64,000 nucleotides of DNA from an uncultured Alphaproteobacteria bacterium (GTDB lineage: Bacteria > Bacteroidota > Ignavibacteria > OLB7), in assembly GCA_964455525.1 (NCBI GenBank), contig CAYVWR010000003.1, positions 323,475 to 387,474 of the forward strand, written 5' to 3'. Below are positions 24,622 through 60,273 of the stretch, in pieces. Every line of letters starts with the position of its first letter. The stretch's first letter is position 1. The notes under the pieces are model-generated. The model worked only from the letters and a program-made list of their open reading frames with translations. It was not told the DNA's origin and ran no database searches. The position numbers and the translations under genes were made by a program.

Positions 24622-25153
24622 ACCGTAAACGTGGAATCTACACAGGTTTTAAGCATCCCAGATTGTGTCTGACAATTTGAATCGTCTAGCGACGAGATAC
24701 CTGTTGGGAACAGGTGTGCAATGCCGCCGAAACGGTGCCAATCGCTCTTCAGTGTACGGAAGAAGCTCCCACTGAGAGCAGTATCCCAGCAGGTGCTCCA
24801 ACGGTTTATGCTCCGGGTAACGGCATTGGCTGAACAGAACTCAGCAATGCCAATGGCCGTATACTGGGGCGATCGGGGGGCGTGACTGGCCGCGTGTGCT
24901 GCGAGTCGGTTGTGCGTACCCGTTGGCACAGTGTTCTTGTGCACGCGGAAAGCCAGCAACCATGACCTGCATCGACGTTCTGCTGGATGGTCTCGGCAAA
25001 TACCGCAGCGTTAGATGTACGATATGAAAAAAAGTTAACGTCGGGTTGCAAATGCATTGCATTGGCTCATCGCTCAGGGTATGTTCCCTCTGCGTGTACA
25101 ACCGCCAATGATCTCGCTGCTCATCCAGTATCGTTCTAAAGAAAGGTGCATGT

Positions 25154-27277
25154 ATGCTGCTGATAAGATTGCACGTTCGTGCAGGTGTATCGCTCCAGGT
25201 TCTGCTGCTGCTGCTTGCGGTGGCTTCTGCACTGCATGCAGGGGAGCATGATGGCAGGGATCGCTACGCTCTGGTGCTGCCGGATAGCACGGAGGTGGAC
25301 GCACCTGTGCAGACCAGCGAGTCACCGTTCAAACGTGGTCGATCGGGCCTGCGTGTGTATGTCTATGGAGACGATGGGCAACTGGTCTCGGATGCCGATG
25401 TCCAGGTCTTCTCGCTGATTGATGCGACGGTTCTTGCGGTCCCGTTCGACACACTGCATCGAGCGTATTCTCTGCGAGTGACCTGGGTGAAGGACTTCGA
25501 GTATGAAGAAGTGGATAGGGGAATCGCACCGCACCGCTACAAGAAGCTACGGATCAGCAAAGCAGGATATCAGCCTCAGGAGTATTACCTGAACGAGTGT
25601 TGTGATGCCGGTCTGGGCCGGGTCGATATCTATCTGGCACGACCAGGGGAACGCCTGTATTACGATGGGTGCCATGGCATACCGTTCACTCCGCATCGCG
25701 ACCTTGCCTATGTGGAGTTTATCTGGAGCGATGCGGGTCATCGGAGGCAGAACCAGAAGGTGTTGAAGGAACTAGGGTTGCAGGTGGTGCGGAACTACCC
25801 AGGTGTTGCGATCAAGGAGACTTCACCGAAGCAGAGAGGTCGGCGAAGCCGTGTTGGCAGCAATGGTGTGGTTGTGCGGAAGTCGGGTGGGGGTGTGTTT
25901 GATGCGGTGGGTGATACGGTTCTGGGCGCGTTGCGCGGTGATACTCTGGTGCGTACCGCAGGGATGGTGCGTGGCATGAGCGGTGATCGTGTTGATGCTT
26001 ACGACAACCGCTTGGTGCTGGTCTTTGGTACTCTTGAGGATGCGTTGCTGGAGAACGACTACGAGACGGTGACGAACCTTTTGTGGGGTATGGGTGCCAG
26101 CGATATAGTTGTACAGTTTGGTGATCGTCTTATCGCGGAGTTCGATGCAGGGATGGGAGAAGGCATCCTGGACATCGCCGATAGCCTTCGGCGAACGCGT
26201 TTGTTCGATGCGTTGCAGAACACGGATGTCGGCACGTTCTCTCACTTCTACCAACGGAGGATCTCAAGGCAGCCGAAGCCGTCCTCGCCCGGCGGGAAGC
26301 GCACGCGGGAGGCCAGCCGATCGGCCTCGCAGTTGCGTTCGTCCGGCACGATCGTCTCTGGCAGTGGTGAGGTGCTGCTGCCGGTGCGTGTGGTTGGTGA
26401 TTCCGGTGAGGTGGTCAACAATGTGATCGTGAGTGCATACCGGCACCTGGAATCAATACCGAGGACATCGTTGGCGGTTGGTTATGACTCATCGCGTTCG
26501 TTGTATCTGATTCCGTACAAGCCTACGAAGATGTCGTGGCTTGTGGCGTGGGCACCGGGTCGTGTACGTCAGGTTCGTCCCCTTTCGAGTTCTGTTCTCT
26601 CGGAAGTGATCGATGGGGTGCTGACCCTGCGGCTGTATAGCGTGCGCCTGGAATATTATTGGCTGGGGAGCTGGAAAGTTCTCTACGAGAGCCGTCCGGA
26701 CTGGATGAGCCTGAGATACAAGCCGGGCCGGTTGGCAGCGGTTGAACGGTTGGTGCAGAGTCTGGATCTGCGTGTCGTGGGAGATCTGGAGCTGGAAGAA
26801 TTGATAAGAGGCCCTATTGTATGGCCATGGGGACCTAATCCATTTCGTTATCGTGAAAACAACCTGGCACGGCTGCGTGAGGCAGAGATACTGATGGTTG
26901 CCAAACGCAACGGTGAGTTGTTCGATCGGTACGACAGTCGGGAGCTGGAAGGATTGCGTGGTGATACAAATGTCATCTTTGCGGGACCGACATCTGCATC
27001 GACGCATGTGTATGTTCATATGCATGATAACGATATTCGCCTACGCTTGTCTGAGAGGATGACATCACGGGATCTAGGCTACCTGGTCGCACCATATGGG
27101 TTGAGTCTTGAGTCGGGAGTGACGGAGGATGCCAAGGATCGTTACAGAGTGAGTCTTCCATTGGGGATGGGTGAAGGAGCCAGGGAGCTGATCGATCGGC
27201 TGATTCTAGTAAAAGGCATTGCAATCCCCAGCAGTGATAATTATCAATTTGAAAGTTGGCTTAAAGGGGAGGATTGA
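25154..27277 (+). CDS. Secreted 707-aa protein of unknown function, copy 1.
   Basis: Signal peptide MLLIRLHVRAGVSLQVLLLLLAVASALHA. Segments LRVYVYGDDGQLVSDADVQVFS and LLPVRVVGDSGEVVNNVIVSAY look like transthyretin/CarboxypepD_reg-like beta-sandwich modules. Confidence 0.6.
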   Translation: MLLIRLHVRAGVSLQVLLLLLAVASALHAGEHDGRDRYALVLPDSTEVDAPVQTSESPFKRGRSGLRVYVYGDDGQLVSDADVQVFSLIDATVLAVPFDTLHRAYSLRVTWVKDFEYEEVDRGIAPHRYKKLRISKAGYQPQEYYLNECCDAGLGRVDIYLARPGERLYYDGCHGIPFTPHRDLAYVEFIWSDAGHRRQNQKVLKELGLQVVRNYPGVAIKETSPKQRGRRSRVGSNGVVVRKSGGGVFDAVGDTVLGALRGDTLVRTAGMVRGMSGDRVDAYDNRLVLVFGTLEDALLENDYETVTNLLWGMGASDIVVQFGDRLIAEFDAGMGEGILDIADSLRRTRLFDALQNTDVGTFSHFYQRRISRQPKPSSPGGKRTREASRSASQLRSSGTIVSGSGEVLLPVRVVGDSGEVVNNVIVSAYRHLESIPRTSLAVGYDSSRSLYLIPYKPTKMSWLVAWAPGRVRQVRPLSSSVLSEVIDGVLTLRLYSVRLEYYWLGSWKVLYESRPDWMSLRYKPGRLAAVERLVQSLDLRVVGDLELEELIRGPIVWPWGPNPFRYRENNLARLREAEILMVAKRNGELFDRYDSRELEGLRGDTNVIFAGPTSASTHVYVHMHDNDIRLRLSERMTSRDLGYLVAPYGLSLESGVTEDAKDRYRVSLPLGMGEGARELIDRLILVKGIAIPSSDNYQFESWLKGED

Positions 27278-27438
27278 TCCCCAACGTGCCGATTCGTGCT
27301 TTGTGAAGATATCCCGTGGAAACGATGCGGGATGATATGTCTGGGCTGTGATTGTCCCAGCAAACTCTTGTTGCCCTCTGTCCTCTCGTGATAGTGCAGG
27401 GGAGCCAGTATATCAAGTACACCACAACAACAATTTCT

Positions 27439-27891
27439 ATGAAACGAAGCCAAGTGCGATCGCTGTTTATTCGTGTCTGTGATCCGATGGGAATGCTGAT
27501 AGGTGATGCCACTGTGTCGGTGCGGAGCAGTGATGGGGTTGTGGAGCGTGTTGCCTCGGGTGTGGATAGGATAGGGCATGGTGTGAAGAAGGAGTATAAT
27601 CATTATATCAAAGATATTGAGCCAGGAACATATATCCTGGAGATCAGCCGACCAGGGTCGATACTGGAGCGCTTGGTAGTTGATATGCCGGATACTGGTC
27701 GGTATCTGGAATGTATGCTCCACGCAAAGGATAGTGAGTATGGGTATCGGGCAGGCCGGAGCGCTGGATATTGCACGGGAGCACTGGAAGTAGCCGTGAT
27801 GCATGCTGGCAGAGTTGAAGATTGTGATCTGCGTGGTACTCGGGAAGTCGCTGAGAGTTTTGGGCTGCACCTGTCCGGGATATTTGAATAG
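27439..27891 (+). pseudogene. Truncated duplicate of the 5' end (~150 codons) of the giant S8 gene, created by the tandem duplication. It ends GIFE* where the intact gene continues GIFKNADG.
   Basis: Identical to 30310-30762 apart from junction bases. The reading frame runs into the repeat junction and stops at 27891. Confidence 0.6.
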
Positions 27892-30762
27892 GATATGAAA
27901 AAAAGTTAACGTCGAGTTGCAAATGCATTGCATTGGCTCATCGCTCAGGGTATGTTCCCTCTGCGTGTACAACCGCCAATGATCTCGCTGCTCATCCAGT
28001 ATCGTTCTAAAGAAAGGTGCATGTATGCTGCTGATAAGATTGCACGTTCGTGCAGGTGTATCGCTCCAGGTTCTGCTGCTGCTGCTTGCGGTGGCTTCTG
28101 CACTGCATGCAGGGGAGCATGATGGCAGGGATCGCTACGCTCTGGTGCTGCCGGATAGCACGGAGGTGGACGCACCTGTGCAGACCAGCGAGTCACCGTT
28201 CAAACGTGGTCGATCGGGCCTGCGTGTGTATGTCTATGGAGACGATGGGCAACTGGTCTCGGATGCCGATGTCCAGGTCTTCTCGCTGATTGATGCGACG
28301 GTTCTTGCGGTCCCGTTCGACACACTGCATCGAGCGTATTCTCTGCGAGTGACCTGGGTGAAGGACTTCGAGTATGAAGAAGTGGATAGGGGAATCGCAC
28401 CGCACCGCTACAAGAAGCTACGGATCAGCAAAGCAGGATATCAGCCTCAGGAGTATTACCTGAACGAGTGTTGTGATGCCGGTCTGGGCCGGGTCGATAT
28501 CTATCTGGCACGACCAGGGGAACGCCTGTATTACGATGGGTGCCATGGCATACCGTTCACTCCGCATCGCGACCTTGCCTATGTGGAGTTTATCTGGAGC
28601 GATGCGGGTCATCGGAGGCAGAACCAGAAGGTGTTGAAGGAACTAGGGTTGCAGGTGGTGCGGAACTACCCAGGTGTTGCGATCAAGGAGACTTCACCGA
28701 AGCAGAGAGGTCGGCGAAGCCGTGTTGGCAGCAATGGTGTGGTTGTGCGGAAGTCGGGTGGGGGTGTGTTTGATGCGGTGGGTGATACGGTTCTGGGCGC
28801 GTTGCGCGGTGATACTCTGGTGCGTACCGCAGGGATGGTGCGTGGCATGAGCGGTGATCGTGTTGATGCTTACGACAACCGCTTGGTGCTGGTCTTTGGT
28901 ACTCTTGAGGATGCGTTGCTGGAGAACGACTACGAGACGGTGACGAACCTTTTGTGGGGTATGGGTGCCAGCGATATAGTTGTACAGTTTGGTGATCGTC
29001 TTATCGCGGAGTTCGATGCAGGGATGGGAGAAGGCATCCTGGACATCGCCGATAGCCTTCGGCGAACGCGTTTGTTCGATGCGTTGCAGAACACGGATGT
29101 CGGCACGTTCTCTCACTTCTACCAACGGAGGATCTCAAGGCAGCCGAAGCCGTCCTCGCCCGGCGGGAAGCGCACGCGGGAGGCCAGCCGATCGGCCTCG
29201 CAGTTGCGTTCGTCCGGCACGATCGTCTCTGGCAGTGGTGAGGTGCTGCTGCCGGTGCGTGTGGTTGGTGATTCCGGTGAGGTGGTCAACAATGTGATCG
29301 TGAGTGCATACCGGCACCTGGAATCAATACCGAGGACATCGTTGGCGGTTGGTTATGACTCATCGCGTTCGTTGTATCTGATTCCGTACAAGCCTACGAA
29401 GATGTCGTGGCTTGTGGCGTGGGCACCGGGTCGTGTACGTCAGGTTCGTCCCCTTTCGAGTTCTGTTCTCTCGGAAGTGATCGATGGGGTGCTGACCCTG
29501 CGGCTGTATAGCGTGCGCCTGGAATATTATTGGCTGGGGAGCTGGAAAGTTCTCTACGAGAGCCGTCCGGACTGGATGAGCCTGAGATACAAGCCGGGCC
29601 GGTTGGCAGCGGTTGAACGGTTGGTGCAGAGTCTGGATCTGCGTGTCGTGGGAGATCTGGAGCTGGAAGAATTGATAAGAGGCCCTATTGTATGGCCATG
29701 GGGACCTAATCCATTTCGTTATCGTGAAAACAACCTGGCACGGCTGCGTGAGGCAGAGATACTGATGGTTGCCAAACGCAACGGTGAGTTGTTCGATCGG
29801 TACGACAGTCGGGAGCTGGAAGGATTGCGTGGTGATACAAATGTCATCTTTGCGGGACCGACATCTGCATCGACGCATGTGTATGTTCATATGCATGATA
29901 ACGATATTCGCCTACGCTTGTCTGAGAGGATGACATCACGGGATCTAGGCTACCTGGTCGCACCATATGGGTTGAGTCTTGAGTCGGGAGTGACGGAGGA
30001 TGCCAAGGATCGTTACAGAGTGAGTCTTCCATTGGGGATGGGTGAAGGAGCCAGGGAGCTGATCGATCGGCTGATTCTAGTAAAAGGCATTGCAATCCCC
30101 AGCAGTGATAATTATCAATTTGAAAGTTGGCTTAAAGGGGAGGATTGATCCCCAACGTGCCGATTCGTGCTTTGTGAAGATATCCCGTGGAAACGATGCG
30201 GGATGATATGTCTGGGCTGTGATTGTCCCAGCAAACTCTTGTTGCCCTCTGTCCTCTCGTGATAGTGCAGGGGAGCCAGTATATCAAGTACACCACAACA
30301 ACAATTTCTATGAAACGAAGCCAAGTGCGATCGCTGTTTATTCGTGTCTGTGATCCGATGGGAATGCTGATAGGTGATGCCACTGTGTCGGTGCGGAGCA
30401 GTGATGGGGTTGTGGAGCGTGTTGCCTCGGGTGTGGATAGGATAGGGCATGGTGTGAAGAAGGAGTATAATCATTATATCAAAGATATTGAGCCAGGAAC
30501 ATATATCCTGGAGATCAGCCGACCAGGGTCGATACTGGAGCGCTTGGTAGTTGATATGCCGGATACTGGTCGGTATCTGGAATGTATGCTCCACGCAAAG
30601 GATAGTGAGTATGGGTATCGGGCAGGCCGGAGCGCTGGATATTGCACGGGAGCACTGGAAGTAGCCGTGATGCATGCTGGCAGAGTTGAAGATTGTGATC
30701 TGCGTGGTACTCGGGAAGTCGCTGAGAGTTTTGGGCTGCATCTGTCCGGGATATTCAAAAAT
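27892..30762 (+). repeat. Tandem direct repeat, copy 2 (2,871 bp). This is the ancestral copy and continues into the intact giant gene.
   Basis: Near-identical to 25021-27891. One substitution was noticed: G at 25045 versus A at 27916. Identity decays only in the last ~10 bp at the junction. Confidence 0.9.
28025..30148 (+). CDS. Secreted 707-aa protein of unknown function, copy 2 (identical to copy 1).
   Basis: Identical translation to 25154-27277. Confidence 0.6.
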   Translation: MLLIRLHVRAGVSLQVLLLLLAVASALHAGEHDGRDRYALVLPDSTEVDAPVQTSESPFKRGRSGLRVYVYGDDGQLVSDADVQVFSLIDATVLAVPFDTLHRAYSLRVTWVKDFEYEEVDRGIAPHRYKKLRISKAGYQPQEYYLNECCDAGLGRVDIYLARPGERLYYDGCHGIPFTPHRDLAYVEFIWSDAGHRRQNQKVLKELGLQVVRNYPGVAIKETSPKQRGRRSRVGSNGVVVRKSGGGVFDAVGDTVLGALRGDTLVRTAGMVRGMSGDRVDAYDNRLVLVFGTLEDALLENDYETVTNLLWGMGASDIVVQFGDRLIAEFDAGMGEGILDIADSLRRTRLFDALQNTDVGTFSHFYQRRISRQPKPSSPGGKRTREASRSASQLRSSGTIVSGSGEVLLPVRVVGDSGEVVNNVIVSAYRHLESIPRTSLAVGYDSSRSLYLIPYKPTKMSWLVAWAPGRVRQVRPLSSSVLSEVIDGVLTLRLYSVRLEYYWLGSWKVLYESRPDWMSLRYKPGRLAAVERLVQSLDLRVVGDLELEELIRGPIVWPWGPNPFRYRENNLARLREAEILMVAKRNGELFDRYDSRELEGLRGDTNVIFAGPTSASTHVYVHMHDNDIRLRLSERMTSRDLGYLVAPYGLSLESGVTEDAKDRYRVSLPLGMGEGARELIDRLILVKGIAIPSSDNYQFESWLKGED

Positions 30763-33700
30763 GCTGATGGGGTAACACAGGTGTTTTCGCCTGGTGCCGA
30801 TGGCTGCAATGAGAATGAGAGGGATATCCTGAAGAAGTGTAGTGATGCACTTCACACTGCGGGGATCTATAGCCACATAGGTATCGTTCTTGAGAGGAAT
30901 GAAGGGGCCATACATGTAGCAACGGGCATCATTCTTGCCAAATGCCTGCCTGGGATCGATGTTCAGTATGTACGAGATACGATCGAACGTGCCAGCCTGG
31001 AAATAGTGTATGAACATTCACCTGTAAGCCGCCTCTTTGAGATTGCGGTCAACGATGTTGCTGGAAAGAACATAGTGGATTCATGCAGAACATTGATGGA
31101 ATCCGGAGTGTTTGAATCCGCTGATCCCATGGCAACCGTAACCGCTGAACTGTTAAGCGGGAGTCAGGTGATCCCCAGTGATTTTCTCTTTCCTCTTCAG
31201 TGGCATCTCGCAACAGCAAATGTGCCGGAAGCATGGGCCATCCTACAAAGTCATGGTAGACCATCCACCGAGGTGAACGATCTGACGTATGGAAGCGCCG
31301 ATGTGGTTATCGCTATTGTCGATACCGGCGTTGATTCATCGAAGTATGAAGATGAACCTGATGGAGAAGGCGCTCCCAACCATACGGACTTTATAGGGAA
31401 TGTGCGCGGCGGTCTGCTTGCCCCTCTTATCGGATCGAAAAAAGTTTACAAGATCTATGATATGCGGACATTCAAACGTACGGATAACCATGGCAATCGC
31501 GATCCGAATATTCGTGGTGGGATGTACCCTGATAATTACAAGGTAACCTTGTCGCATGGGGTTTCATGTGCAGCCATTGCCACTGCCATGGCAAATGGCA
31601 GGGGAAGCGTGGGTGTTGCACCCAATGCGCGCCTCATTAGCATTCGTACCGCTCAGCAAGGGACGAATCTGAATCAAATTAACAGGAATACATGGTCATG
31701 GCTTGTGGGGCTGGACCCAGGATGGACCACCAATGGACCTGTGTATGATCCGTATGATATTCTTCCGGCGCAGTTTGGCACGCCCGGTAATCCAGGGCCG
31801 GGCGCGGATATCATCTCTAATAGTATGAGATTTAAGTACTTGGCGGAGAACTTTGATGCCGATATGCGAAACATTAGCGATGTGTGCTGGTACGGGCGGC
31901 AGCGAAGAGGTGCTATCTTCGTATTAGGGGCGGGCAATGATGATAGTAGCATTATGGATAGGCAGATGTTCGGATATCATCGTCGCATCATTGTTGTTGC
32001 AGCTTCTACTCTGGATTCCAAAGGGGTGGAGATCCGTGCTCCATATAGCAGCTATGGTGACAATTCCAGAGAGGTATATCCGCCTAAGGATAATTCTGGA
32101 AATAATGAAGGCTCTGAAGTCGAAAAGAAAAAAGAGATCCCTGACAGAAAACCCGACTGGCTCTATGTAGATGTTTCTGCTCCATCTGCTAACTATCCGG
32201 AATGCGACAATAATCCTCTGTATGCTGAGCTTACAATAAATGAAGATGGATCTGTTGGGCCTCCGGATGATACCTATAAGGTTTTTGGCCCTCGGCCCCA
32301 TATGGTCAATCGCCCACCATACAACCGTGCGATTGTCACAGCCGGTATGTTCGAGGATACGCGGGACTTTCTGCTTGGAGGCACTCTCTATCCACCAACG
32401 GATGAGAGTGCCAGAGTAAGCCAGCTCACACGCAGTAATCTGCCCGGAGATCATATCCGGGAAACCACACTGTGGGAGGCTGTGGATGCCCCTGTATCGA
32501 ACGCTACCCGTGTAAAGGTTGTCAAGGTGGCAAATGTGCCAGGGATTACCTATGCTCCCCACGATGCGGTCGTGATAGGAAAGGTCGGTTATAATGAAAA
32601 TGGAGTCGATGAAACCGCCATCAATGAGGTTGAGTCCTCCGTTGTGGTCGGTGTCACCGAATACCCCGATTATACGGAACTGGAACTGGATGGTTATCTG
32701 TGGAATGCACACGCTGCGGGCGCACCGGTATATACGGGGAAACGGAGCTATGTGGATCATTTCAGCGGGACATCGATGTCCACGCCCCTGGTTGCCGGCA
32801 CGGCTGCCCTTATACTCTCGGCAAATCCATACCTCACCAACATCGAGGTTCGCGAGATATTGCGATCGACGGCTGTAAAGATCGATATGCATGGAGGTAT
32901 GTGGCTTAGTACTCAGTTCAGAAGCCAGAGAGATAAAACAATCTTATCTCGTGATCGGGTTGCTCCTGCAATAGGTGTGCAGCCTCCTATCTTCAAGCCT
33001 ATCACGTCATCGTTAGGCATTGCAATCGACGCTGTCGCCGATAGTGGAAAATTCTCCAGGATCACTATTGCGGAAAATCAAAGCCGTGCGGGTTTCAGTG
33101 TTGGCCAGGCCGTTCTGATAGGCGCAGAGACATTGCTTGTTCGGGCCGCGACATTGCCGCCGAACCCGATCCAGCCTGTGACGATCACGGTCGAGAGTAC
33201 CGACGGATTCCACCCTGGCCAGATTATCCGGATTGGTGATGCGGATACCACATATTTTGCCGGGTTTCCAGTGAGACGGAATGATGGCAGTGACGATAGC
33301 ATGGATCAGAGTACGGAGGAGCCGGAGGCACGTGGCAGGATTATCGGGCTTGACCGTAAGAAGATCCTTGTAGGAAATACCAGAACCTATCAGGCAGGCC
33401 AGGCTATCCTGATAGGTGGGGTACGGTATGTTATAGAATTTGTCCAGGGAACATTCAAGTTGCTGCTGACAACGGAGTATGCGGGCGAAAACCACTGGCC
33501 CCATGTTCCCCGTATGGAGGTGGTCCCGGCCGATGTGCTTGAGGGCACCGTCGAAGAAATCGTGAGCGATACGCAGATGACCGTGATCTATACGGGGCCG
33601 GGGAAAAGCTTCACCACGACTCCCAAGCCTCTTGTCCGTGTTAAGGGAACCGAGTCCTCGGTGATTATGGATCTTCCCGGCGACGATGCCAGGGCGGTTA

Positions 33701-36700
33701 TCGTGCAGCGCCTCGGGAATGTGCATACTGAGGCTGACAAGAAGATGGTGCTCGGCGGCAGGACGCCATACTATAGCCGCCACCTGGGGTTTGGCAGGGT
33801 GGATGCCGCCGCCGCCGTGAGCGCTGCATTCAGTTATAGCCACAACGACAGGGATCTGATGGTACGTAAGTATATGGGGGATAATGGCACTACACGGCCC
33901 GATATGGCATATGAGGCTCTGAAGCTCAGCCCTGATATCTGGCTGAGCAACAGTGGTGATTCCGTTCTGCCCGCCGACGATGCCTATGGAACGCCTGCGC
34001 CCCACCAGACCTTTGCGTCCAATCAGCCCAGATGGATCTATGTACGGGTGAAAAATCGTGGCACGAAGCCAAGCCTGGAAGCATCGGTGCGATTTTATGT
34101 GGCAGTCAGGGACCGTGCGGAGATTCTGAAGTTCACGATGGATGATTTCCAGCAATCAAGGATCGATGGGGTGCCGTTTACGGTGTCAAGTGGCAATATC
34201 GGCACTCAGTATGTGGAAGAAGCATACCTCTTCCCCTTTGATGCTACCGATATGAGCGGTATACCCCATAACAGGACAATGGTGGTACGGACAAATAAAT
34301 GGGAGCTTGCCAATCTGCCGCTCGATGCCGTATTGTCGGGGCGCAAACGGATTTTTGTGCTTGCCGAGATCACCCCCCATGATGGGCGCGTCAAAGGGGC
34401 TGACAATAACTATATCGACACCATCTACAACAAGGAGAACTTTCTCGATATCCGTAATGATAACAACGTCGCGTTTCGTGAGGTGATCTTTGCCGATGTT
34501 CAGGTCAAGGGGCAGCCCGATGGCGAGCCTCTGCAAAAGCAGTACCCGGCGCCGAGATCCGGCAGGAAAAAATCTCAACTGTTCAGGATTGATCTGCTCG
34601 ACCGGGTTGGGGCATTTGTTGCTGAAAATGTCGTCGTGGAGGTGACCGGAGTTTGTGCGGGCCTATCTTCGGCGGTGGAGTTTTATCATACATCCGGCAC
34701 CGGCTGGCGAACCAGCGATCCTGGAGCCGACTGGATCTCCTTTGATGGTCCGCCCATGACGACGCACCCCGCCACCACCACCCCATCCAATCCTGTCAGC
34801 ATACCCGAAGCCGCGGTGGGGGACCTGTACGAAATGTTCTTTACCGGCACGTTTGCCGTTGATACTACATGGCAGTCCATCTCCATCATCGCTGTGATTC
34901 ATGATGACGAAGGAAGGGAGCTTGGGCGTAGCGGATGGGCCGCACAGATCGTGGAGGAGCCTGTCAGGTATGATGTTCTCGCTGATGCCGCCGTTGCCCG
35001 CCCTGCTCTCTCCGCCTTTGCAGATATGAGCCTACTGGACGAGCAGATAAGTGAATCGATGGCCTACGGCCCGCAGTCGTCCCTGGTGTTTCGTAGTACC
35101 AATAGCTTCACCTCGCAGGCCGATAGTGTGCCGGCCTATGCCGCCGCCGATGGTGTTGCGATGATACAGCGGATGGTCGATCCGGAGACCGGGCTGGTCG
35201 ATGAGCAGCGTGTGAACCTGATTATTGCGCCGCGTGGCGGGTCTGGCGTTGCTATTCAGCCTGTCCAGTATTTTGTCTATCGTGGTCTCAGGATCGGCGA
35301 TTTCCTGGGAGGGCCTGCAACCGGGAACGGCGGGGTCGATTATATCCAGGTGCGCTCCGGTCCAGCCGATGAGAACGACACCAGCGTCTCGGCTTTTATC
35401 AGGGAGATCTACAGAGGCATGGAGATGCGCCGTCAGGAGATGGTCGCCGCCGGAATTCCTTCGGGTGATATCCCGGATATCGAAAACGATCCGTTGTCGA
35501 GCAGCATTCTGGGATGGGAGGCGAGCGCCAGCCTGGAAAGCACGAACGATCTCCCCCTGGATGATTTTTTCAATCGATTCGATGAACTGCGCCAGCTTCC
35601 GCTGGTGCGCAGGGGAATGCATCTCGGCGATTTTCATGCCGGGGAGGAGGCAGAGTTCGGCATCGATATCGCGCTGCAAGGGGACTATGCGGTCCCGCTG
35701 ACGTTTGCGTATGCGCGCAGAGCCTACCATGAGATCAATCTGCTGGAGGATGAGCCTGCCTCGGAGTGGGAGGAACGGCGGCGGCGCGAGGATGCGCGCA
35801 ATTTTATCGATGCGGCGGCCTACTATGGCATGCACGGCTCGATCGGCGTCTACGATCATCAGGGGAGGTTGCGGCGGGGGGAGGAACTCTACAACGATCT
35901 GCTCCTTCCCTTCCTCAACAGAAACCGGGTCTATATCGATATCCGGAACGAGGCAGGATACTCGATGAACTATTCCGGCAATTATATGATGGATGGGGCA
36001 CAGGTGAAGGTGGGATCGGACCTTGCCTTGATGTACGCTGATATCTATGCCACCGATGGCTGGCCGATCGGCATGATAGAGCGCTCGCATAGCGAGATTC
36101 TCTCGGGAGAAGATGGCATCTTCTATCTCTCGCTCGCTGTTGCGGATAATACGCTTCCGCTCCTGTATGTAGAGCAGGGTATAGTGCAGGGCCAGCTCCA
36201 CCAGGGCTTTGTGCCGGGGAGTTGGCTGCTGGCCCAGGGGACGGAATGGACCTTCCCGGTCGGATTTCGGCTTCCGCAGGTAGAAGAAGGCGGGCAGATG
36301 CGCGATCTGGCCGGTATGATCCGGCTCCGCTATCTGCGCCAGATTCCTGCGGTGCCGGGGCTTGCAGTGGGGAACGTAGTGGCGGCGGAGCACTATACCG
36401 ATAATATCTTCGGTCCGGTGGATGCCGGTGTTGCCTGGGATGCCGCTCCGGGAAATTCGCCGATGAATCATCTGCAACAGACCCGATGGGACCGGCTTCA
36501 CGAAAGGCGATATGCGGATGGTCGGCAGACCGGCCATGGTATCTCCTTTGGCGCGCTTATGGAACGTGGCATCGCGGTGCGGAGCGGGCAGGTGCTCTTC
36601 TACAACGTCGCCGTCGATTTCTACAGCATAAGCGGAGGGGTGGTGCCAAAGGGGAGAGGGGCGGGAGTGGGCTTCGGCCCGCAGCAGAATTTCCTGGAGG

Positions 36701-38274
36701 CATCCTCGATCTTCAATGGTTATAATGTGGAGACGAGCGAGATAGCCCAGCCTGTGGCCGCGACGCTGTATAGGCTGGTTCCACAGGACGATAACGTTGT
36801 GCGCGAAGGGGTGATGATGCTTGGTATTACCGCCAGTGAACGGGCGCTGCTCGCCGATGCTGCCGCTGTTGTGCTGAGCCGCTATCACGAGCGGAATCTG
36901 GTGCTTGAAGAACGCCAGATCGTGGGCGCCGAGGCCTCCGTCTACAGTCTGAAGGTCCGTGGCCTCCACAAGGACACCCATCAGAGCTATGATGCGGAGC
37001 CGACCTCGGAGATTCATGTTTACTCCAGAGATGGTCTCTTTTTTGTCTCGGCGGAATTCACCATGCCGGATTTCCTTCCCGACATCTATCTGCCAAACGC
37101 GGAGGAACTGCGTGCGGCCACGCCGGAGCCGACAGCGATCCTGGAGAACCATCCGGTGATGGCGATGTTGATCGCTGGCTTTGAACATGCGTTGTCGTCG
37201 ATTCCTGATAACGATATGGCCAGGGAATCGCTGAAAGCGGCGATCGATATTTACGGAGAAGATCTCTGGGCCGAGGCGACCGCGTTTACTCTCGATGGAG
37301 GTGCTGACGACCGGATACTCTACTGGGCCAGGCTGAGGATGGCTGCGGTGTTGAAAGGGCATCCCCGTCTGCTGAAGAACTCGCAGGAGCAGGCCGAGGT
37401 GGTGCGCTATTTCGAGGAGACGACCCGCGGGTTCGCTCAGGCCACATTTGCCAATGCCACCACAGGGGCCATGAAGATTCTGCTGGTCGGCTTCGATCCC
37501 TACGCGCTTGGCGGTGCTGGCGTAACCAACAGCAATTCCGGGGGGATGGTGGCTCTCGGAATGCACGGCAAGAGCATAACAGAGGGAGATGCCACAGGGC
37601 ATATCAACAGCGTTATCCTCCCGATTCGCTATCGCGATTTCGATGATGGGATGGTAGAGCGCCTGTTTAGCCCCTTCCTGTATGGAAATACCACGGTGGA
37701 TATGATCGTGGCCGTGAATATGAATGGAGGCCACGGCATGTTCAGTCTGGCGCGATTTGCCGCACGCGCCAGAACCGGAGGATTCCCGGATAATGCCGAT
37801 CGGAAATCGGTCGGGGCAATTGGAGCAGGAACCGGCTGGAATGAATTCTACCAGACGAGCCTGCCAGTGCAGGAGATGATGCAGGGGGAGATCGGGCGTA
37901 CGCCGCAACAGATATTCTTTTATGACCAGTCGTACCGGTTGATCGATCCCACTGGCGTCCCGCTAGAGCATGGGCGTGCGGGAATCGATGCAGGGGCGAT
38001 CAACAGCGATCTGAACGAATCGCTGCCGCTTGGGGGAACCGCTGTGGCGGGGTCGGCCGGAAGCTATCTGCCGAACGAGTTTTTCTACCGGCTTGCGCGG
38101 TTGCGTGCGCAGCCTCCGGGAACGGAGCCTTCGCCGAATGTACGCCTGGGATATCTCGGCATTCCAAGCGTAAACGTCTCGGCGGTTACCGGTGGAGTGC
38201 TCTCCCGAAGCCAGATCATGAACGAGCTGGAAGAGGCATTGAAACGGGCGCTGGCCGGGCTGGGCGAAGGTTAG
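30310..38274 (+). CDS. Giant protein (~2,655 aa) carrying a peptidase S8 (subtilase) catalytic domain split by large insertions, followed by ~1,500 aa of unknown sequence.
   Basis: Catalytic Asp in VIAIVDTGVDSS, His in SHGVSCAAIATAMANG, Asn in VLGAGNDD and Ser in GTSMSTPLVAGTAALILSANPYL. CARDB-like segment NQPRWIYVRVKNRGTKPSLEASVRFYV. Start taken at the internal ATG (MKRSQVRS). Confidence 0.7.
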   Translation: MKRSQVRSLFIRVCDPMGMLIGDATVSVRSSDGVVERVASGVDRIGHGVKKEYNHYIKDIEPGTYILEISRPGSILERLVVDMPDTGRYLECMLHAKDSEYGYRAGRSAGYCTGALEVAVMHAGRVEDCDLRGTREVAESFGLHLSGIFKNADGVTQVFSPGADGCNENERDILKKCSDALHTAGIYSHIGIVLERNEGAIHVATGIILAKCLPGIDVQYVRDTIERASLEIVYEHSPVSRLFEIAVNDVAGKNIVDSCRTLMESGVFESADPMATVTAELLSGSQVIPSDFLFPLQWHLATANVPEAWAILQSHGRPSTEVNDLTYGSADVVIAIVDTGVDSSKYEDEPDGEGAPNHTDFIGNVRGGLLAPLIGSKKVYKIYDMRTFKRTDNHGNRDPNIRGGMYPDNYKVTLSHGVSCAAIATAMANGRGSVGVAPNARLISIRTAQQGTNLNQINRNTWSWLVGLDPGWTTNGPVYDPYDILPAQFGTPGNPGPGADIISNSMRFKYLAENFDADMRNISDVCWYGRQRRGAIFVLGAGNDDSSIMDRQMFGYHRRIIVVAASTLDSKGVEIRAPYSSYGDNSREVYPPKDNSGNNEGSEVEKKKEIPDRKPDWLYVDVSAPSANYPECDNNPLYAELTINEDGSVGPPDDTYKVFGPRPHMVNRPPYNRAIVTAGMFEDTRDFLLGGTLYPPTDESARVSQLTRSNLPGDHIRETTLWEAVDAPVSNATRVKVVKVANVPGITYAPHDAVVIGKVGYNENGVDETAINEVESSVVVGVTEYPDYTELELDGYLWNAHAAGAPVYTGKRSYVDHFSGTSMSTPLVAGTAALILSANPYLTNIEVREILRSTAVKIDMHGGMWLSTQFRSQRDKTILSRDRVAPAIGVQPPIFKPITSSLGIAIDAVADSGKFSRITIAENQSRAGFSVGQAVLIGAETLLVRAATLPPNPIQPVTITVESTDGFHPGQIIRIGDADTTYFAGFPVRRNDGSDDSMDQSTEEPEARGRIIGLDRKKILVGNTRTYQAGQAILIGGVRYVIEFVQGTFKLLLTTEYAGENHWPHVPRMEVVPADVLEGTVEEIVSDTQMTVIYTGPGKSFTTTPKPLVRVKGTESSVIMDLPGDDARAVIVQRLGNVHTEADKKMVLGGRTPYYSRHLGFGRVDAAAAVSAAFSYSHNDRDLMVRKYMGDNGTTRPDMAYEALKLSPDIWLSNSGDSVLPADDAYGTPAPHQTFASNQPRWIYVRVKNRGTKPSLEASVRFYVAVRDRAEILKFTMDDFQQSRIDGVPFTVSSGNIGTQYVEEAYLFPFDATDMSGIPHNRTMVVRTNKWELANLPLDAVLSGRKRIFVLAEITPHDGRVKGADNNYIDTIYNKENFLDIRNDNNVAFREVIFADVQVKGQPDGEPLQKQYPAPRSGRKKSQLFRIDLLDRVGAFVAENVVVEVTGVCAGLSSAVEFYHTSGTGWRTSDPGADWISFDGPPMTTHPATTTPSNPVSIPEAAVGDLYEMFFTGTFAVDTTWQSISIIAVIHDDEGRELGRSGWAAQIVEEPVRYDVLADAAVARPALSAFADMSLLDEQISESMAYGPQSSLVFRSTNSFTSQADSVPAYAAADGVAMIQRMVDPETGLVDEQRVNLIIAPRGGSGVAIQPVQYFVYRGLRIGDFLGGPATGNGGVDYIQVRSGPADENDTSVSAFIREIYRGMEMRRQEMVAAGIPSGDIPDIENDPLSSSILGWEASASLESTNDLPLDDFFNRFDELRQLPLVRRGMHLGDFHAGEEAEFGIDIALQGDYAVPLTFAYARRAYHEINLLEDEPASEWEERRRREDARNFIDAAAYYGMHGSIGVYDHQGRLRRGEELYNDLLLPFLNRNRVYIDIRNEAGYSMNYSGNYMMDGAQVKVGSDLALMYADIYATDGWPIGMIERSHSEILSGEDGIFYLSLAVADNTLPLLYVEQGIVQGQLHQGFVPGSWLLAQGTEWTFPVGFRLPQVEEGGQMRDLAGMIRLRYLRQIPAVPGLAVGNVVAAEHYTDNIFGPVDAGVAWDAAPGNSPMNHLQQTRWDRLHERRYADGRQTGHGISFGALMERGIAVRSGQVLFYNVAVDFYSISGGVVPKGRGAGVGFGPQQNFLEASSIFNGYNVETSEIAQPVAATLYRLVPQDDNVVREGVMMLGITASERALLADAAAVVLSRYHERNLVLEERQIVGAEASVYSLKVRGLHKDTHQSYDAEPTSEIHVYSRDGLFFVSAEFTMPDFLPDIYLPNAEELRAATPEPTAILENHPVMAMLIAGFEHALSSIPDNDMARESLKAAIDIYGEDLWAEATAFTLDGGADDRILYWARLRMAAVLKGHPRLLKNSQEQAEVVRYFEETTRGFAQATFANATTGAMKILLVGFDPYALGGAGVTNSNSGGMVALGMHGKSITEGDATGHINSVILPIRYRDFDDGMVERLFSPFLYGNTTVDMIVAVNMNGGHGMFSLARFAARARTGGFPDNADRKSVGAIGAGTGWNEFYQTSLPVQEMMQGEIGRTPQQIFFYDQSYRLIDPTGVPLEHGRAGIDAGAINSDLNESLPLGGTAVAGSAGSYLPNEFFYRLARLRAQPPGTEPSPNVRLGYLGIPSVNVSAVTGGVLSRSQIMNELEEALKRALAGLGEG

Positions 38275-38473
38275 GCGCCGGAATACCACTGCCGGGAGCG
38301 GCCGGGCGGAATACACCCGGTCGCTCCCGGCTTCGGATGGTCTATCGGTTATGCAGTCCGGCAGAGCATTCCCTGCGGCCATATCTACCAGAGCACTTCG
38401 ATTTTTGTCACCATCCCGCATCTATCCATCACGAATTTTTCACGTGGTCACCGCCACATTCTATGAAGATGTT

Positions 38474-41400
38474 ATGAGCAGTATTAACTCTTATTATCCG
38501 CCGCTATCTGCGCTTGCCGATATAAGCATAATTCCCCCTCAGCTTGATTTTATCGGGCATGCATTGAATTCCCTGCTCGATAGAATCTATTTCCGCGATC
38601 TGCAACATTCAACAAGCAGGGGCGGAGGAAGAGAATTCTATAGCCTTACGCTTCTGACTTATAGAAAGATCGGCATCGAAATTCCAGGAACCGGCATCGG
38701 CCTATATCTCAATCCTCCCGATCCTCCCGGCAGTGCCGGAGGAACCCTGTTCGGCACCGGCATTCCACTTACGCTGGAGTACGAATGGGGCATTGCCGAT
38801 CTGGTTCGTGGTTTCGACCTGGAGACGTTCAAGCCGGACCCGAAAACGCTGTTTGGCCTTATTGCCCGGACGATGAAGCTTGATACATCCACGCTTGCCG
38901 GGCAGGCGATCGCAGCATTTGCCGGCGGATCTCTGGAGTCCTTTATCGGCGATATAAATACGTGGCTCGGCAATGAAAACATCGAGCAGATTCTCTCCCC
39001 TGATGCCGGATTGAGCGATCCGGAAAAGATCGCCAACGTGATAGGGCAGATCGAGGATAATGCCGGAGTGCCGCTGCCGGAAGCTCTGTGGAATGTCTAC
39101 CTGAGTTCGACAGGAGATGCCGGCAACTCTGCCCCTGTCGATCAGTTGTTTCGGCCATTGCTCGGCGGAAAGTCGATGCTGGAGTACATCGGCGATCTGC
39201 TAGCCCCGAAGATCAATGCGTCGCTGCGTCTGAAAACACGCCTGGAATTTCCGCGAACAATTCTTAAGCCTCTTATCATCGAGCAGGGGCAACCGCATCG
39301 TGTCGATGAAAACCCCGAAGCCCGATCGACCCTCGACTTTGCCGAGGGGACCTTGTGTTTCAATACATCGAAGGGAATCGGTTTCGATGCCATGCTGGAT
39401 GCCACGCTGGTTCCGTCTCAGATCGGCGATACCGGGCTGACTCTCTCGTTCACCCAGGCCCGGCTGGACCTCAGTACCACGGCCAGCATACCGGAATCGG
39501 TGGCCGATGGCCGCGGCGAGGATTTTGTCGGCGTTTATATCCGGGATGCCGAGATCGGGCTTCCCGCATTCTGGCGGACAAAGCCAGATGACGAGCGGCC
39601 GCAGGATCTGAACCATCGCGCCAGGATCATCGGGCGAAATATTCTTATCGGCACCGGCGGGCTTTCCGGTTCCTTCAGCCTGCTGACAACCGATGATGAG
39701 CCGTTGCTGGAGACCCGCTTCGGCGCCACCGAGGGGGAACCCGGAAGCAGCGGATTCGGGATTGCACTCGATCGCTTCGATATTTCGTTTCATCAGGGAG
39801 CGATCGTCGGCTCGGATATTCATGGCACTCTGCGCCTGCCGGTCGGTGATGGAGATATCGCGCTCGGCGTCACCATCGCTGTGCATAATGGTGGCTTCAC
39901 CATCGCAGTGCAGCCCGATCCGCCGGTCAGCTTCGGGATGGATAATGTTTTTTCGCTGACAATAACAAAAATTGGGGTGGGAAGTCTCGGTTCCCGCTAC
40001 TACCTGGAGGCTGCCGGATCTCTGGAGATTCTCGCCGATCTGCCCGGCGTTGGAAGGATCTTCAAGCAGCCGATCGAAATCGGCACGGTGATCATCTGGT
40101 CCAATGGCGAGATCGATTTCCAGGGGGGAAGCTTCGTCCTGAATGAGGCGGTCAGGTTGGTCGCCGGCCCGGTCGATTTTTCGGTGACCGCAATCCATAT
40201 CGGAAGCGAGGAAGGCTACCATGCGGGGCACCGGAGACACTACAGATATTTCGGGTTCGATGGTGGGGTGAAAACCGGCATTGGCGGAGTGGATGCCCGT
40301 GGCGATGGCATCAAGCTCTATTATACTTCCGACAACACCCGTACGGGGCTGCCCGGGCATATCTATCTCCGTCTGGAATCAATCAAGGTAAGCCTGACGA
40401 TACCCGGCGATGCAACCGAGGAGAACGTTGCATTGATCTTGAAGGGATGGCTCTCGATGAAAAATCGTGCATCCGGCGAATCCGGCGGGGCCATCCCCGA
40501 ATACGCTGGCGGGGTAACCTTCTCGCTGCCGAAGCTTGGAACGGGTGGAGGAGCCAATCTGAAAATGATCCCGTCGATCGGTGCCTTCCTCGTCGATGCC
40601 AATCTGGAGTTTCCTTCGCCGATCCTTCTGGGGAGTACCGGTCTTGGCATCTACGGGTTGAACGGAATTTTCGGCAATAAATATATTCTTCGGAAAGGGG
40701 AGAACGAGCGCTGGTGGGAGTTCTACAGAAAGCCCGATCCTGGCGTTAACGTGCAGAAGTTCAGCCGGGCCGATGGGTTTGCAATAGGCGCGGGGGTTTC
40801 CATGGCTACGGCTGGTGACTCCGGCGAAGCATTCTCGAGCAAGCTGATGTTTATTCTTTCGATACCCGGAATGCTTGCGTTCGAGGGACGTGCTTCCATT
40901 CTGAGCACAAGGCTCGGGCTGAGCGGCGATGAGGACCCCCCGTTCTTTGCGGTCCTGTCGTTGAGCGAAATCGGGGTGGAAGCGGCCTTTGGCATCAATT
41001 ACCAACGCCCTCGCAATTCCGGCGATATTTTCAGCCTGAATGCCATTATGGAGCTTGGCTTTTTCTATGGGCGCTCCTCGGCATGGCACGTAAATATCGG
41101 CCGCGACGCGCCCGACACCATGCGCATCGGTGCATCCATGCTGAAGGTTCTCCACGGCAAAGGCTATCTGATGCTCGGATCAGGGGGCATCAAGGTGGGG
41201 CAGAGCGTGGAGTTCAAATTTGAACAGGATTGCGCGGTGGCAAGGGTGGGGCTGTATGCGGCGCTCGAAGTTGGCGGTCGTGCGAGCTTCCGTCCGCTTC
41301 AGATTGGCGGTTGGGGGCATGTAGGAGGCTACGCCGAGTTGAAGATATTCGGCTTTGGATTCCGTCTGAATGTGGATGCGTTTCTTATGGTGGAGGCACC

Positions 41401-57007: not shown

Positions 57008-57331
57008 AGTAGCTCTCCGCATCAGGCACCCGCATGCTCGGTTGGTTCCCGATGTCGATATCAGAACCGCTTCGATCCATCCAATGGCCGGGGCGGTTCT
57101 TCATTGTATCGGCGTTCGCCCGGCTGTAGCTCTGCTCTTCATGGCTACAGCCCTTCGGTTCATGCGGGCAGATTCAACGGTTCAACAATGTTTTCATAGC
57201 TTGAGGGCTGGTGGCTTCTTGAAGAGACCGATGTACGGACTACTGTGCATGAGGGCACTTCCGGCAGACTGGTGCCGGCCGCGGCACATCGTTTCCCTGG
57301 CAATATTCAAACCCTAATCGTCGATACAACA

Positions 57332-59033: not shown

Positions 59034-59085
59034 TATCGTGCCCTGAATCTCGTGCCCTGATACGGTTGTGATGGCCGGTAAGAGA

Positions 59086-60273
59086 TCAGGCTGCGCCTAT
59101 TCTTGCCTCCAGAAAACACTCCCGCAACGCACCTTCCAGCTCCATGATATGCTCCTCCTGGAAGATCAGCGGCGGCACCAGGCGTATCACCGTCTCATCG
59201 GTTGCGTTGACTATCACATGGCGACGGAGCATTGCATCGACGAACGGCGCCGAGGATATGGCCAGCTCAACGCCAACCATGCCGCCGCTTCCGCGAACGT
59301 CGGCGATAAGATCGGGAAACTCGTTCTGAAGCCCCCGCATTCGCGCCAGCAGCAGCTCGCCCGAACGGCGTGCGTTCTCCATTGCCCCATCGTTCAGCTC
59401 ATCCAGCACGGCGCTTCCGGCAGCGCAGGCTATCGCGTTGCCGCCGAAGGTGGTGCCATGTTGTCCGCTTCCCCAGACCGTTGCGAGCTGTTCGGTTGCA
59501 AGGATCACGCCGAGCGGAAGGCCGCCGCCGATCCCCTTTGCCATCGTGACCAGATCCGGCCGGACATTATAGCGTGTGAACGAGAAGAAGTCGCCGGTGC
59601 GGCCGCCGCCCCCCTGGATCTCGTCGGCGATAATCAGGAACCCATAGCGGTCGCGCAGTTCCAGAATCGCCTCGACAAACGCCGGATCGGCCCAGCGAAC
59701 GCCCCCTTCGCCCTGAAGAAACTCCAGGACGACGGCGCAGGTCTGCTCTGCAACACCTGCACGAAGCGCCTCGATATCGTTGAACGGAAGCACCACCGTA
59801 TCCGGCAGGAACGGTCCCATGCCATCTTTATAGCGGGGTTTGTCCATAATCGAGAGAACGCCATAGGTGCGGCCATGAAATCCGCCGGTGAAGCCGACGA
59901 TCTGGCGTTTTCCCCGTTCGTTGCCATAGGCGCGGGCAAGCTTCATCGCACCTTCGTTTGCCTCGGTGCCGCTGTTCGAGAGAAATGCACGCTGGTAGCC
60001 GCTTGCCGCCGACAGGCGCTCCACAAACTCGATCTGCGCATCCTGATAGAAGTAGTTCGACAGGTGCATATAGCGGGCAAGCTGTCGGCTGACTGCCTCG
60101 ATCACGCGTGGATGCGAGTGACCGAGCGAGTTGACGGCGATGCCGCCGAGGAAGTCCAGATATCTGGTGCCATCGGTGGCATACACGTACATACCTTCAG
60201 CGCGATCGACCTCGATGGGAAGGCGCTTGTAGGTTTGCAGAAAATGGGCATGCTCGCGCGCGATCAGGGACAT
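59086..60273 (-). CDS. argD: Acetylornithine aminotransferase (class III PLP-dependent aminotransferase).
   Basis: MSLIAREHAHFLQTYKRLPIEVDRAEGMYVYATDGTRYLDFLGGIAVNSLGHSHP...LSNSGTEANEGAMKLAR is an ArgD/class-III aminotransferase signature. Length 395 aa. Confidence 0.85.
   Translation of the reverse strand: MSLIAREHAHFLQTYKRLPIEVDRAEGMYVYATDGTRYLDFLGGIAVNSLGHSHPRVIEAVSRQLARYMHLSNYFYQDAQIEFVERLSAASGYQRAFLSNSGTEANEGAMKLARAYGNERGKRQIVGFTGGFHGRTYGVLSIMDKPRYKDGMGPFLPDTVVLPFNDIEALRAGVAEQTCAVVLEFLQGEGGVRWADPAFVEAILELRDRYGFLIIADEIQGGGGRTGDFFSFTRYNVRPDLVTMAKGIGGGLPLGVILATEQLATVWGSGQHGTTFGGNAIACAAGSAVLDELNDGAMENARRSGELLLARMRGLQNEFPDLIADVRGSGGMVGVELAISSAPFVDAMLRRHVIVNATDETVIRLVPPLIFQEEHIMELEGALRECFLEARIGAA

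Follow-up and report, generated by a model that had tools for sequence, protein, structure and literature searches.

We analysed a window of 64,000 nucleotides from an uncultured Alphaproteobacteria bacterium (contig CAYVWR010000003.1, positions 323,475 to 387,474 of the forward strand; all coordinates below refer to this window). It contains three giant genes, termed G1, G2 and G3, and the first of these, G1 (30310-38274, plus strand), is the subject of this report. The list of open reading frames (ORFs) and the translation give a product of 2,654 amino acids from the ATG at 30310. The enclosing ORF (30223-38274, plus strand) is one uninterrupted frame and ATG 30310 is its likeliest start. 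The protein deposited at NCBI, P0001, begins 16 codons later at 30358 (MGML...) and is otherwise 100% identical to G1; its residue numbering is used throughout. ATG 30310 is favoured over 30358 because the residues coded upstream of the NCBI start (SLFIRVCDPMGMLIGDATV) match the N-terminal consensus of the family, IxVxDxxGxxLxxAxV. A check of the whole protein found no hydrophobic segment, no membrane segment and no signal peptide. Judged by its sequence, G1 is a cytoplasmic-looking soluble protein with a peptidase S8 (subtilase) domain as its N-terminal enzymatic third. It is the first of three giant genes that form a conserved cassette.

The S8 catalytic domain with its insertions extends from 31153 to 33882 (plus strand; residues 266-1175). 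This corresponds to about 910 residues compared with about 275 in subtilisin BPN'. The Pfam family PF00082 (Peptidase_S8) matched in two stretches with E=3.2e-29 and 102.6 bits at a cut-off of 21.8. A phmmer search matched 64 solved subtilases. A profile of 21 relatives identified mirolase, a KLIKK protease of Tannerella forsythia, as the best match in PDB (8ehe_A, E=1.8e-31), and 96 solved subtilases were retrieved at E<1e-8. The first-pass annotation had reported subtilase-type Asp, His, Asn and Ser motifs in the canonical order, and all four indeed reside in one plus frame of ORF 30310-38274. The catalytic Asp322 (codon 31321-31323) is in the motif VIAIVDTGVD (31306-31335), His400 (codon 31555-31557) in SHGVSCAAIA (31552-31581), the oxyanion-hole Asn527 (codon 31936-31938) in GAGNDD (31927-31944) and Ser806 (codon 32773-32775) in GTSMSTPLVAG (32767-32799; all plus strand). 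Thus, the domain has the S8 order Asp-His-Ser together with DTG, HGV and GTSMSTP; the third position of the His motif is Val, not Ser or Thr. The equivalog models of NCBIfam stayed under their cut-offs, i.e. type VII mycosin TIGR03921 with 52.1 vs 278.75 bits and dentilisin PrtP NF033595 with 32.3 vs 300. The alignments to the S8 hidden Markov models (HMMs) mapped the boundaries of the inserts and indicate that the S8 identity of the domain is genuine and far above chance; the motifs are not accidental matches.

That large insertions spread the triad was borne out by the Pfam and mirolase-profile alignments, which place the inserts. In G1 78 residues separate Asp and His, 406 His and Ser, and 336 Ser and the HLGF of HLGFGRVDA. 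In subtilisin BPN' (D32, H64, S221) the Asp-His distance is 32, His-Ser is 157 and the C-terminal segment follows about 45 residues after Ser. Both triad spacings had been recognised as enlarged; the earlier figures of about 100 for Asp-His and about 360 for His-Ser were roughly right but required correction. The post-Ser segment HLGFGRVDAAAAV had been located about 330 residues downstream of Ser, close to the measured value. It is the displaced C-terminal S8 segment (33781-33819, plus strand, from residue 1142), the part of the subtilisin fold that makes up its last hairpin and helix. In the profile alignments to PDB, the counterparts of HLGFGRVDAAAAV are YGYGLVDAHAAV and AGFDNTYGYGLVDAHAAV in mirolase and YGFGKIDAH and YSHRYGFGKIDAH in kexin; the profile segment adYslalGyGRvDAaeAV is paired with AGFDNTYGYGLVDAHAAV. 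The mirolase alignment consists of three collinear stretches (profile 7-261 with mirolase 4-241, 404-449 with 283-328, and 718-735 with 334-351). Because the last of these aligns at the HLGFGRVDA segment, we consider it to be the true C-terminal hairpin plus helix. Its G-x-G-R is invariant across the family. Within the His-Asn segment there is a family-specific loop of about 35 residues, GLDPGW...FGTPGNPGPGA (31705-31809, plus strand). It is kept in the family consensus as GLxPxW...FPxxFG...GPGA.

The extra sequence of the S8 domain is located at three hot spots: between Asp and His, between Asn and Ser, and after Ser. The Asp-His site (31348-31494, plus strand) has about 45-50 residues beyond those of subtilisin E and includes a family-conserved strand, KVYxxxDF; phmmer alignments to subtilisin E/NAT are interrupted here between chain residues 40 and 39. 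The Asn-Ser insertion (32068-32727, plus strand) adds about 210 residues, comprising a Lys/Glu-rich stretch of low model confidence, the canonical strand VDVSAPS and one copy of a beta-rich module. At this site 143 family-profile positions face 42 mirolase residues. The post-Ser insertion (32893-33762, plus strand) amounts to about 290 residues and is made up of three N-terminal halves and one C-terminal half of the same module. It is placed where mirolase has about 5 residues (profile 450-717 between chain residues 328 and 334). With E up to 10, no Pfam family, the PA domain PF02225 included, matched in either the Asn-Ser (230-residue) or the post-Ser (290-residue) insert. An origin of the inserts from an intein or a mobile element was considered and rejected: Hint or endonuclease matches were absent, and in relatives the inserts recur as repeats and stay in frame.

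The module was characterised by an HMM which was seeded only from the roughly 80 residues preceding the Ser motif, iterated three times and run on 57 full-length representatives of the family. The first pass detected 181 copies in these proteins and the iterated search 232, distributed over all three variable sites. The consensus is ...atTItVAstAGFAvGQAIlIGdpg..E..vIa.....gntLTL..PL.naH.aGt.V with the core motif GFxxGQxIxIG; in generalised form it reads ...tItVxsTxGFxxGQxIxIG...E..vI....l.L..pL...H..G..V. In G1 the pre-Ser module is complete (residues ~686-798, 32413-32751) and ends immediately before the Ser motif (E=2.7e-13 in the first pass, 1.1e-25 after iteration). The post-Ser N-terminal halves are at 33016-33147, 33166-33246 and 33361-33444 (residues 887-930, 937-963 and 1002-1029) and the C-terminal half is at 33649-33777 (residues 1098-1140); the matches of the module HMM were E=1e-4, 9e-7, 9e-3 and 1.5e-9. 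Two internal repeat copies had been claimed earlier. The strings in question, SVGQAVLIGAETLLV and QAGQAILIGGVRYVI (33097-33141 and 33391-33435), are two of the post-Ser copies, yet the count was too low: at least three motif copies follow Ser and a complete fourth module precedes it. Among relatives, copies number 0-3 at the Asp-His, 1-4 at the Asn-Ser and 1-4 at the post-Ser site; G1 has 0, 1 and 3. Because this one beta-rich module is present in 0-4 copies, the lengths of the hot spots differ 4- to 7-fold among relatives. Inside the post-Ser insert, 21 relatives with about 30% identity share invariant positions; therefore, the inserts are under selection. As read from the alignments, repeated duplications and losses of the module have taken place, and it is without a match to any described family.

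How general is this layout? With the S8 region as query, an exhaustive HMMER search retrieved 3,958 matches from 1.84 billion cluster representatives, 46 of them at E<1e-30. Almost all of the best matches are 2,000-3,255 residues long and their S8 domain starts near residue 270-330. The 57 representatives, all of at least 2,000 residues, were aligned with E-INS-i. At about 25-40% identity Asp, His and Ser are invariant in every one of them (57/57), as are G-T-S and the Pro after it. Of the 57, 51 retain the oxyanion Asn; the other six have E, D or Q. The spacings vary widely, 42-257 residues for Asp-His, 100-518 for Asn-Ser and 65-452 for Ser-GRxDA; His-Asn is nearly constant at 109-157. A post-Ser insertion of 300-390 residues is common to 22 representatives, the protein of the window included. 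On this comparison the stretched-subtilase layout is a family trait with a variable module copy number, and not peculiar to G1 as the first-pass annotation had it. The phyla with family members include Bacteroidota, Acidobacteriota and Kapaibacteria. When 185,579 genomes, one for each species, were scanned with the central region of G1, 143 related loci were detected; they belong to Bacteroidota (Flavobacterium, Mesonia, Kaistella, Chryseobacterium, Taibaiella and others), Acidobacteriota, Kapaibacteria/Ignavibacteria, Planctomycetes and Alphaproteobacteria. The S8-bearing giants are a subset of this wider group: in distant loci the central domain is found in shorter proteins with no detectable S8 domain.

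The fold was predicted with AlphaFold in two parts. Model 1 covered residues 1-1190 with 41 relatives, mostly lacking the post-Ser insert. Predicted local distance difference test scores (pLDDT) of 70-95 were reached in the N-terminal region and, as far as the Ser helices, in the core; residues 846-1190 were left unmodelled. Model 2 covered residues 266-1190 (31153-33927) with 20 trimmed relatives that share the post-Ser insert and gave a predicted template modelling score (pTM) of 0.80 at a mean pLDDT of 67.8. In model 2 Asp322 is at the end of strand 52-57 (pLDDT of the block 89), His400 at the start of helix 135-144 and Ser806 at the start of helix 540-557 (pLDDT about 95). The blocks carrying the Asp, His and Ser positions have pLDDT 77-95. 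The GFGRVDA hairpin (strands 865-875) and the final helix (885-894) are at 84-94. The pre-Ser module, residues 430-535 of the model, is predicted to be beta-rich with pLDDT 75-94, and so is the post-Ser insert with pLDDT 60-94 in parts and <50 in others. Values <50 were obtained for several linkers and for the Lys/Glu-rich stretch that follows the Asn segment, and the His-Asn loop (185-219) was unstructured. Foldseek searches of PDB returned template modelling (TM) scores of 0.71-0.73 normalised on subtilisins of 269-275 residues (BPN' 0.72-0.73) and 0.62-0.66 on mirolase, AprV2 and similar enzymes. The model suggests that the core refolds as a subtilisin and carries the modules on its surface. 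A BFVD search with model 2 retrieved viral subtilases plus cyanophage long tail-fibre, baseplate-wedge and baseplate-J-like proteins at TM 0.05-0.2. These tail and baseplate matches, presumably brought about by the tandem beta-rich modules, are too weak for an interpretation.

The region upstream of the S8 domain (30310-31152, plus strand) is predicted by model 1 as a beta-sandwich (residues ~1-95) followed by two alpha/beta units, with pLDDT mostly at 75-90. The second unit (residues ~184-263) is directly N-terminal to the S8 domain. Its predicted beta-alpha-beta-beta-alpha-beta order resembles the topology of a subtilisin propeptide. The N-terminal region, including this propeptide-like unit, had no Pfam match with E up to 10.

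Taken together, 31153-33882 encodes a genuine S8A-type subtilase which most likely is catalytically competent and in which a new, variable-copy module resides in surface loops of a giant protein. According to alignment and model, the enzyme consists of five core segments. Insertions part them at three surface loops, of which one follows the Asp strand, one links the oxyanion Asn to the Ser helix and one leads from the last two helices to the final hairpin. The enzyme may first autoprocess at the propeptide-like unit just upstream and then cleave itself, the partners G2 and G3, or another, e.g. foreign, substrate. By analogy to the PA domain or the Asp-His insert of tripeptidyl peptidase II, the modules might serve as binding or gating surfaces. 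Cis-processing of the giant polypeptides, as suggested in the first-pass annotation, is conceivable, its only support being the predicted propeptide-like topology upstream of the catalytic domain.

Several points weigh against this interpretation. About a quarter of model 2 has a pLDDT <50, mostly inside the inserts, and the packing of the modules on the active-site cleft is not given by the model. Structure prediction, which the first-pass annotation had proposed as a check, reassembles the subtilisin core with the triad on the expected elements. The assembly of the triad itself is inferred from fold superposition and from the positions in the secondary structure. The substrate-binding strand reads NSMRF in G1 compared with SLGG in subtilisin. 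An hhalign comparison of the propeptide-like unit with the BPN' propeptide was in register and not significant (E=0.027, probability 1.8%). Lastly, the role of the protease in the cassette is pure inference, as G2 and G3 are without recognisable domains in the libraries searched.

Single domain insertions in subtilases are textbook cases, the PA domain and the insert of tripeptidyl peptidase II among them. With mirolase, the best sequence match, G1 shares the order Asp-His-(Asn)-Ser, the motifs and the alpha/beta core; with the subtilisins BPN', Carlsberg and savinase it has the alpha/beta core fold and the catalytic order in common. Those enzymes are secreted and comprise about 275-350 residues, in contrast to the roughly 910 residues of the G1 domain without signal peptide. 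In the PA-domain subtilases (plant SBT3/cucumisin, streptococcal C5a peptidase, lactocepin, the pyrolysin group) a folded domain is present between His/Asn and Ser, and the PA domain is thought to control substrate access or dimerisation. The loop in which it is inserted is the site of the G1 pre-Ser module. However, the G1 inserts lack PF02225, and the module is smaller, repeated and also used in two other loops. Tripeptidyl peptidase II is a giant cytosolic S8A subtilase with about 200 residues inserted between Asp and His, which are used in assembly. Several relatives of G1 have comparable Asp-His distances of 193-257. Yet homology does not extend beyond the S8 core, and in G1 the large inserts flank Ser and the Asp-His insert is modest. 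Kexin and furin (S8B) possess a beta-rich P-domain after the catalytic domain, and Foldseek aligned furin and Kex2 over about 900 query columns. The TM was only 0.45-0.50 and G1 has DTG, not the DDG of S8B; hence G1 does not belong to S8B. Furthermore, the beta-rich material of G1 precedes the final hairpin and helix and is part of the catalytic domain itself; it does not follow that domain. A literature search found no description of a multi-site, variable-copy module insertion in an S8 domain. Loop insertions in S8 domains are already known; by the libraries and literature searched, one module at three loops, in variable copies and in an unannotated family of giants from a conserved three-gene cassette, is new. 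That one small module colonised three loops with changing copy number around an invariant triad can be viewed as a natural experiment on how far a fold tolerates loop grafting. It might also serve as a model for equipping subtilisins with engineered binding surfaces.

Downstream of the S8 domain, the most conserved part of G1 is the central region (34999-35997, plus strand) with the motifs FGP...FRxTSxF, VKYFxYRGL, FIDPAAYYGMH and YxDIRNE; its mean column identity is 42% (alignment A3). Precomputed Pfam annotations list the uncharacterised PF27118 (PA0049_N) for P0001 and relatives. A literature search on PA0049, the name behind PF27118, retrieved nothing relevant. In our Pfam scan the conserved regions between the S8 and the C-terminal domain had no match, and the rest of G1 outside the S8 domain gave nothing meaningful with E up to 10, the C-terminus apart. 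The latter (37471-38271, plus strand) resembles pyroglutamyl peptidase I of family C15 (PF01470, E=1.8e-6, 28.5 bits compared to a 22.7-bit cut-off). It is collinear with this enzyme in the motifs GFDPF, RFA and NE.FYR, but the Glu-Cys-His triad is replaced by Ala, Pro and Tyr/Gly. Most of 25 relatives have Glu/Asp, Ser and His at these positions, possibly a C15 triad of the serine type. The pyroglutamyl-peptidase equivalog models of NCBIfam scored the G1 C-terminus far under their cut-offs. From its residues the C15-like domain looks inactive in G1, perhaps not in the family. As side observations, some giants among the variants P0015, P0016, P0021, P0029, P0120 and P0152 end in ...VPxDQSxGxIDS...RNPEIGxIYL... 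and are not C15-like there; the relative P0152 carries PF27118 and C15 without an S8 domain. In a Flavobacterium locus (L040, 9944-12145) the central domain is in a 733-residue protein, which is followed by an ORF of 1,175 amino acids. Minus-strand ORFs of 300-380 codons opposite to G1 (30115-31017, 31924-32892 and 33013-34155) were without a family match and were taken as by-products of the G+C content.

G2 (38351-47017, plus strand; 2,888 amino acids, true start possibly near 38474) is the conserved partner downstream of G1. Its homologue is directly downstream in 54 of 61 related loci with enough flanking sequence. The third gene of the cassette, G3 (47153-57007, plus strand), encodes 3,284 amino acids with 2.6% Cys, and a G3 homologue follows that of G2 in at least 11 loci. 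Searches of Pfam, NCBIfam, PADLOC, PHROG and PDB sequences gave no match for G2 and G3. There is weak similarity between both proteins: residues 1406-2222 of G2 with 152-886 and 1115-1690 of G3 at about 21-23% identity. By eye, the Cys-rich stretches in the first ~700 residues of G3 look repetitive. Directly after G3 and on the same strand an AAA+ ATPase gene is located (57245-58864; weak AAA_5, sigma-54-activator and Mg-chelatase matches), which could be part of the cassette. The C15-like domain aside, the S8 domain is the only recognisable enzyme in this cassette of proteins of 2,600-3,300 residues. The protease is the most practical experimental entry into a widespread cassette of bacterial 'dark matter'.

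Could the S8 fold merely be a scaffold that displays beta-rich modules without catalysis? The first-pass annotation had raised such a decorated, inactive protein. The inserts do account for about 70% of the S8 domain. In its C15-like domain G1 no longer has the residues of any of the three catalytic positions, an example of lost catalysis within this protein, and the oxyanion Asn is replaced in 6 of 57 relatives. Yet Asp, His, Ser and G-T-S-x-x-x-P persist without exception at about 25-40% identity, which is unexpected if catalysis is not selected for, and the predicted core matches active subtilisins. Because the triad is invariant in 57/57 and the predicted fold reassembles the subtilisin core, an inactive scaffold is unlikely, and we regard a pseudo-protease as improbable. 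A larger particle is conceivable as well. In tripeptidyl peptidase II an Asp-His insert of about 200 residues is used in the assembly of an S8 enzyme, and Asp-His distances of 193-257 residues in some relatives, the lack of a signal peptide in G1, and the presence of a second domain like an N-terminal exopeptidase (C15, with Glu/Asp-Ser-His kept in most relatives) would fit a self-compartmentalising cytosolic exopeptidase. Its inserts would oligomerise into a very large peptide-trimming particle and the C15-like domain would assist. G1 itself, however, has a short Asp-His spacing (78) and a degenerate C15-like domain, and no domain specific for tripeptidyl peptidase II was matched in Pfam or NCBIfam; we deem this improbable as well. 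A trivial explanation, chance motif matches or unrelated pieces joined by a faulty assembly or a frameshift, can be given a negligible probability. A perfect 2.87-kb tandem duplication upstream does reach 447 nucleotides into G1 and indicates that the region was recently rearranged or is imperfectly assembled. But it stops at 30756, upstream of the S8 domain; the frame of 2,654 codons is uninterrupted, the E-values are 1e-29 to 1e-31 and an exact copy of G3 is present on an independent assembly of the same region (Logan contig, run SRR16798011). The same architecture recurs in dozens of independent genomes and metagenomes, and the collinear relatives effectively refute an artefact.

A further alternative is that the subtilase acts as effector or activator protease in a conflict system, either anti-phage or as an inter-bacterial toxin. 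The giants would then sense an invader or be delivered, and the subtilase would degrade targets or activate partners. Such a role would agree with the patchy spread over distant phyla (the 143 loci in 185,579 species genomes), with the GC3 (G+C at third codon positions) of 0.47-0.65 compared with 0.70 in neighbouring housekeeping genes, and with modular, fast-varying surface repeats. In one related locus a SymE toxin gene is about 8.5 kb upstream of the homologue. The AAA+ gene after G3 is of interest here, as pairs of an ATPase and an S8 protease are known defence systems (IetAS), and the weak fold matches to cyanophage tail-fibre and baseplate proteins may be added. Against this, PADLOC 2.0 reported only a generic subtilase (E=1.6e-5 over about 50 residues), nothing for G2 and G3, and 0.007 for the ATPase. 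The window has no defence-island context, its upstream genes being for polysaccharide synthesis, and the viral fold matches are limited to TM 0.05-0.2. On balance, a conflict system is unlikely. The preferred reading thus is a competent S8A-type subtilase with modules in its loops, located at the N-terminus of a giant soluble protein that would act jointly with two other giants. Whether G1, G2 and G3 jointly form an undescribed three-component giant soluble system across phyla is a more speculative matter: tentatively, the module might be a diversifiable recognition surface, and the protease might be used for complex maturation or might provide the killing or sensing function within a new conflict system.

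The base composition of G1 is uneven. The first-pass annotation had described the insertion region as AT-rich. Low G+C was indeed found, yet it is not specific for the inserts and covers the 5' ~2.5 kb of G1 including core segments. From the start codon to about codon 790, i.e. including the N-terminal domains and the core segments with Asp, His and Asn, G+C is 0.46-0.53 (GC3 0.42-0.53). The Ser-helix segment (codons 791-845) has a GC3 of 0.62, the post-Ser insert a G+C of 0.54 and GC3 of 0.58, and the rest of G1 a G+C of 0.58 and GC3 of 0.66. Viewed along G1 (30358-38271), GC3 steps from about 0.47-0.49 in the first ~900 codons to 0.62-0.70 afterwards. The three giant genes as such have a GC3 of 0.61-0.65 compared to 0.70 in nearby housekeeping genes. 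The 5' third of G1 could be of different history, e.g. by recombination with a lower-G+C relative.

Upstream of G1 two copies of a gene for a 707-residue protein are present (25154-27277 and 28025-30148), each with a signal-peptide-like N-terminus and two tandem regions of the G1 N-terminal type. In hhalign comparisons with the ~265-residue N-terminal region of the G1 family, residues 60-355 were matched with 97% probability (E=3e-11) and residues 404-694 with 86% (E=5e-6). A protease domain is absent. The 707-residue proteins could be free propeptide-like partners. A tblastn search with this protein gave one weak match among 80 related loci (L002). The two genes are part of the perfect tandem duplication (2,871 bp, 100% identical; 25016-27885 and 27887-30756). 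Each copy consists of one 707-residue gene, an intergenic region and the first 447 nucleotides of G1. The truncated 5' end of G1 is at 27439-27885, within a 179-codon ORF (27352-27891). The duplication is either a very recent event or an assembly artefact.

At the far end of the window a plus-strand ORF of 407 codons (59068-60291) is probably spurious; an independent contig covering the same region (L081) has a class-III aminotransferase of 395 amino acids called there on the opposite strand. Unrelated to the subtilase, positions 1-24621 contain a polysaccharide/lipopolysaccharide biosynthesis cluster with three GT4 glycosyltransferases, an asparagine synthase, a Bac_transf sugar transferase, E1 dehydrogenase subunits, an epimerase, a nucleotidyl transferase, a GHMP kinase and a heptosyltransferase.

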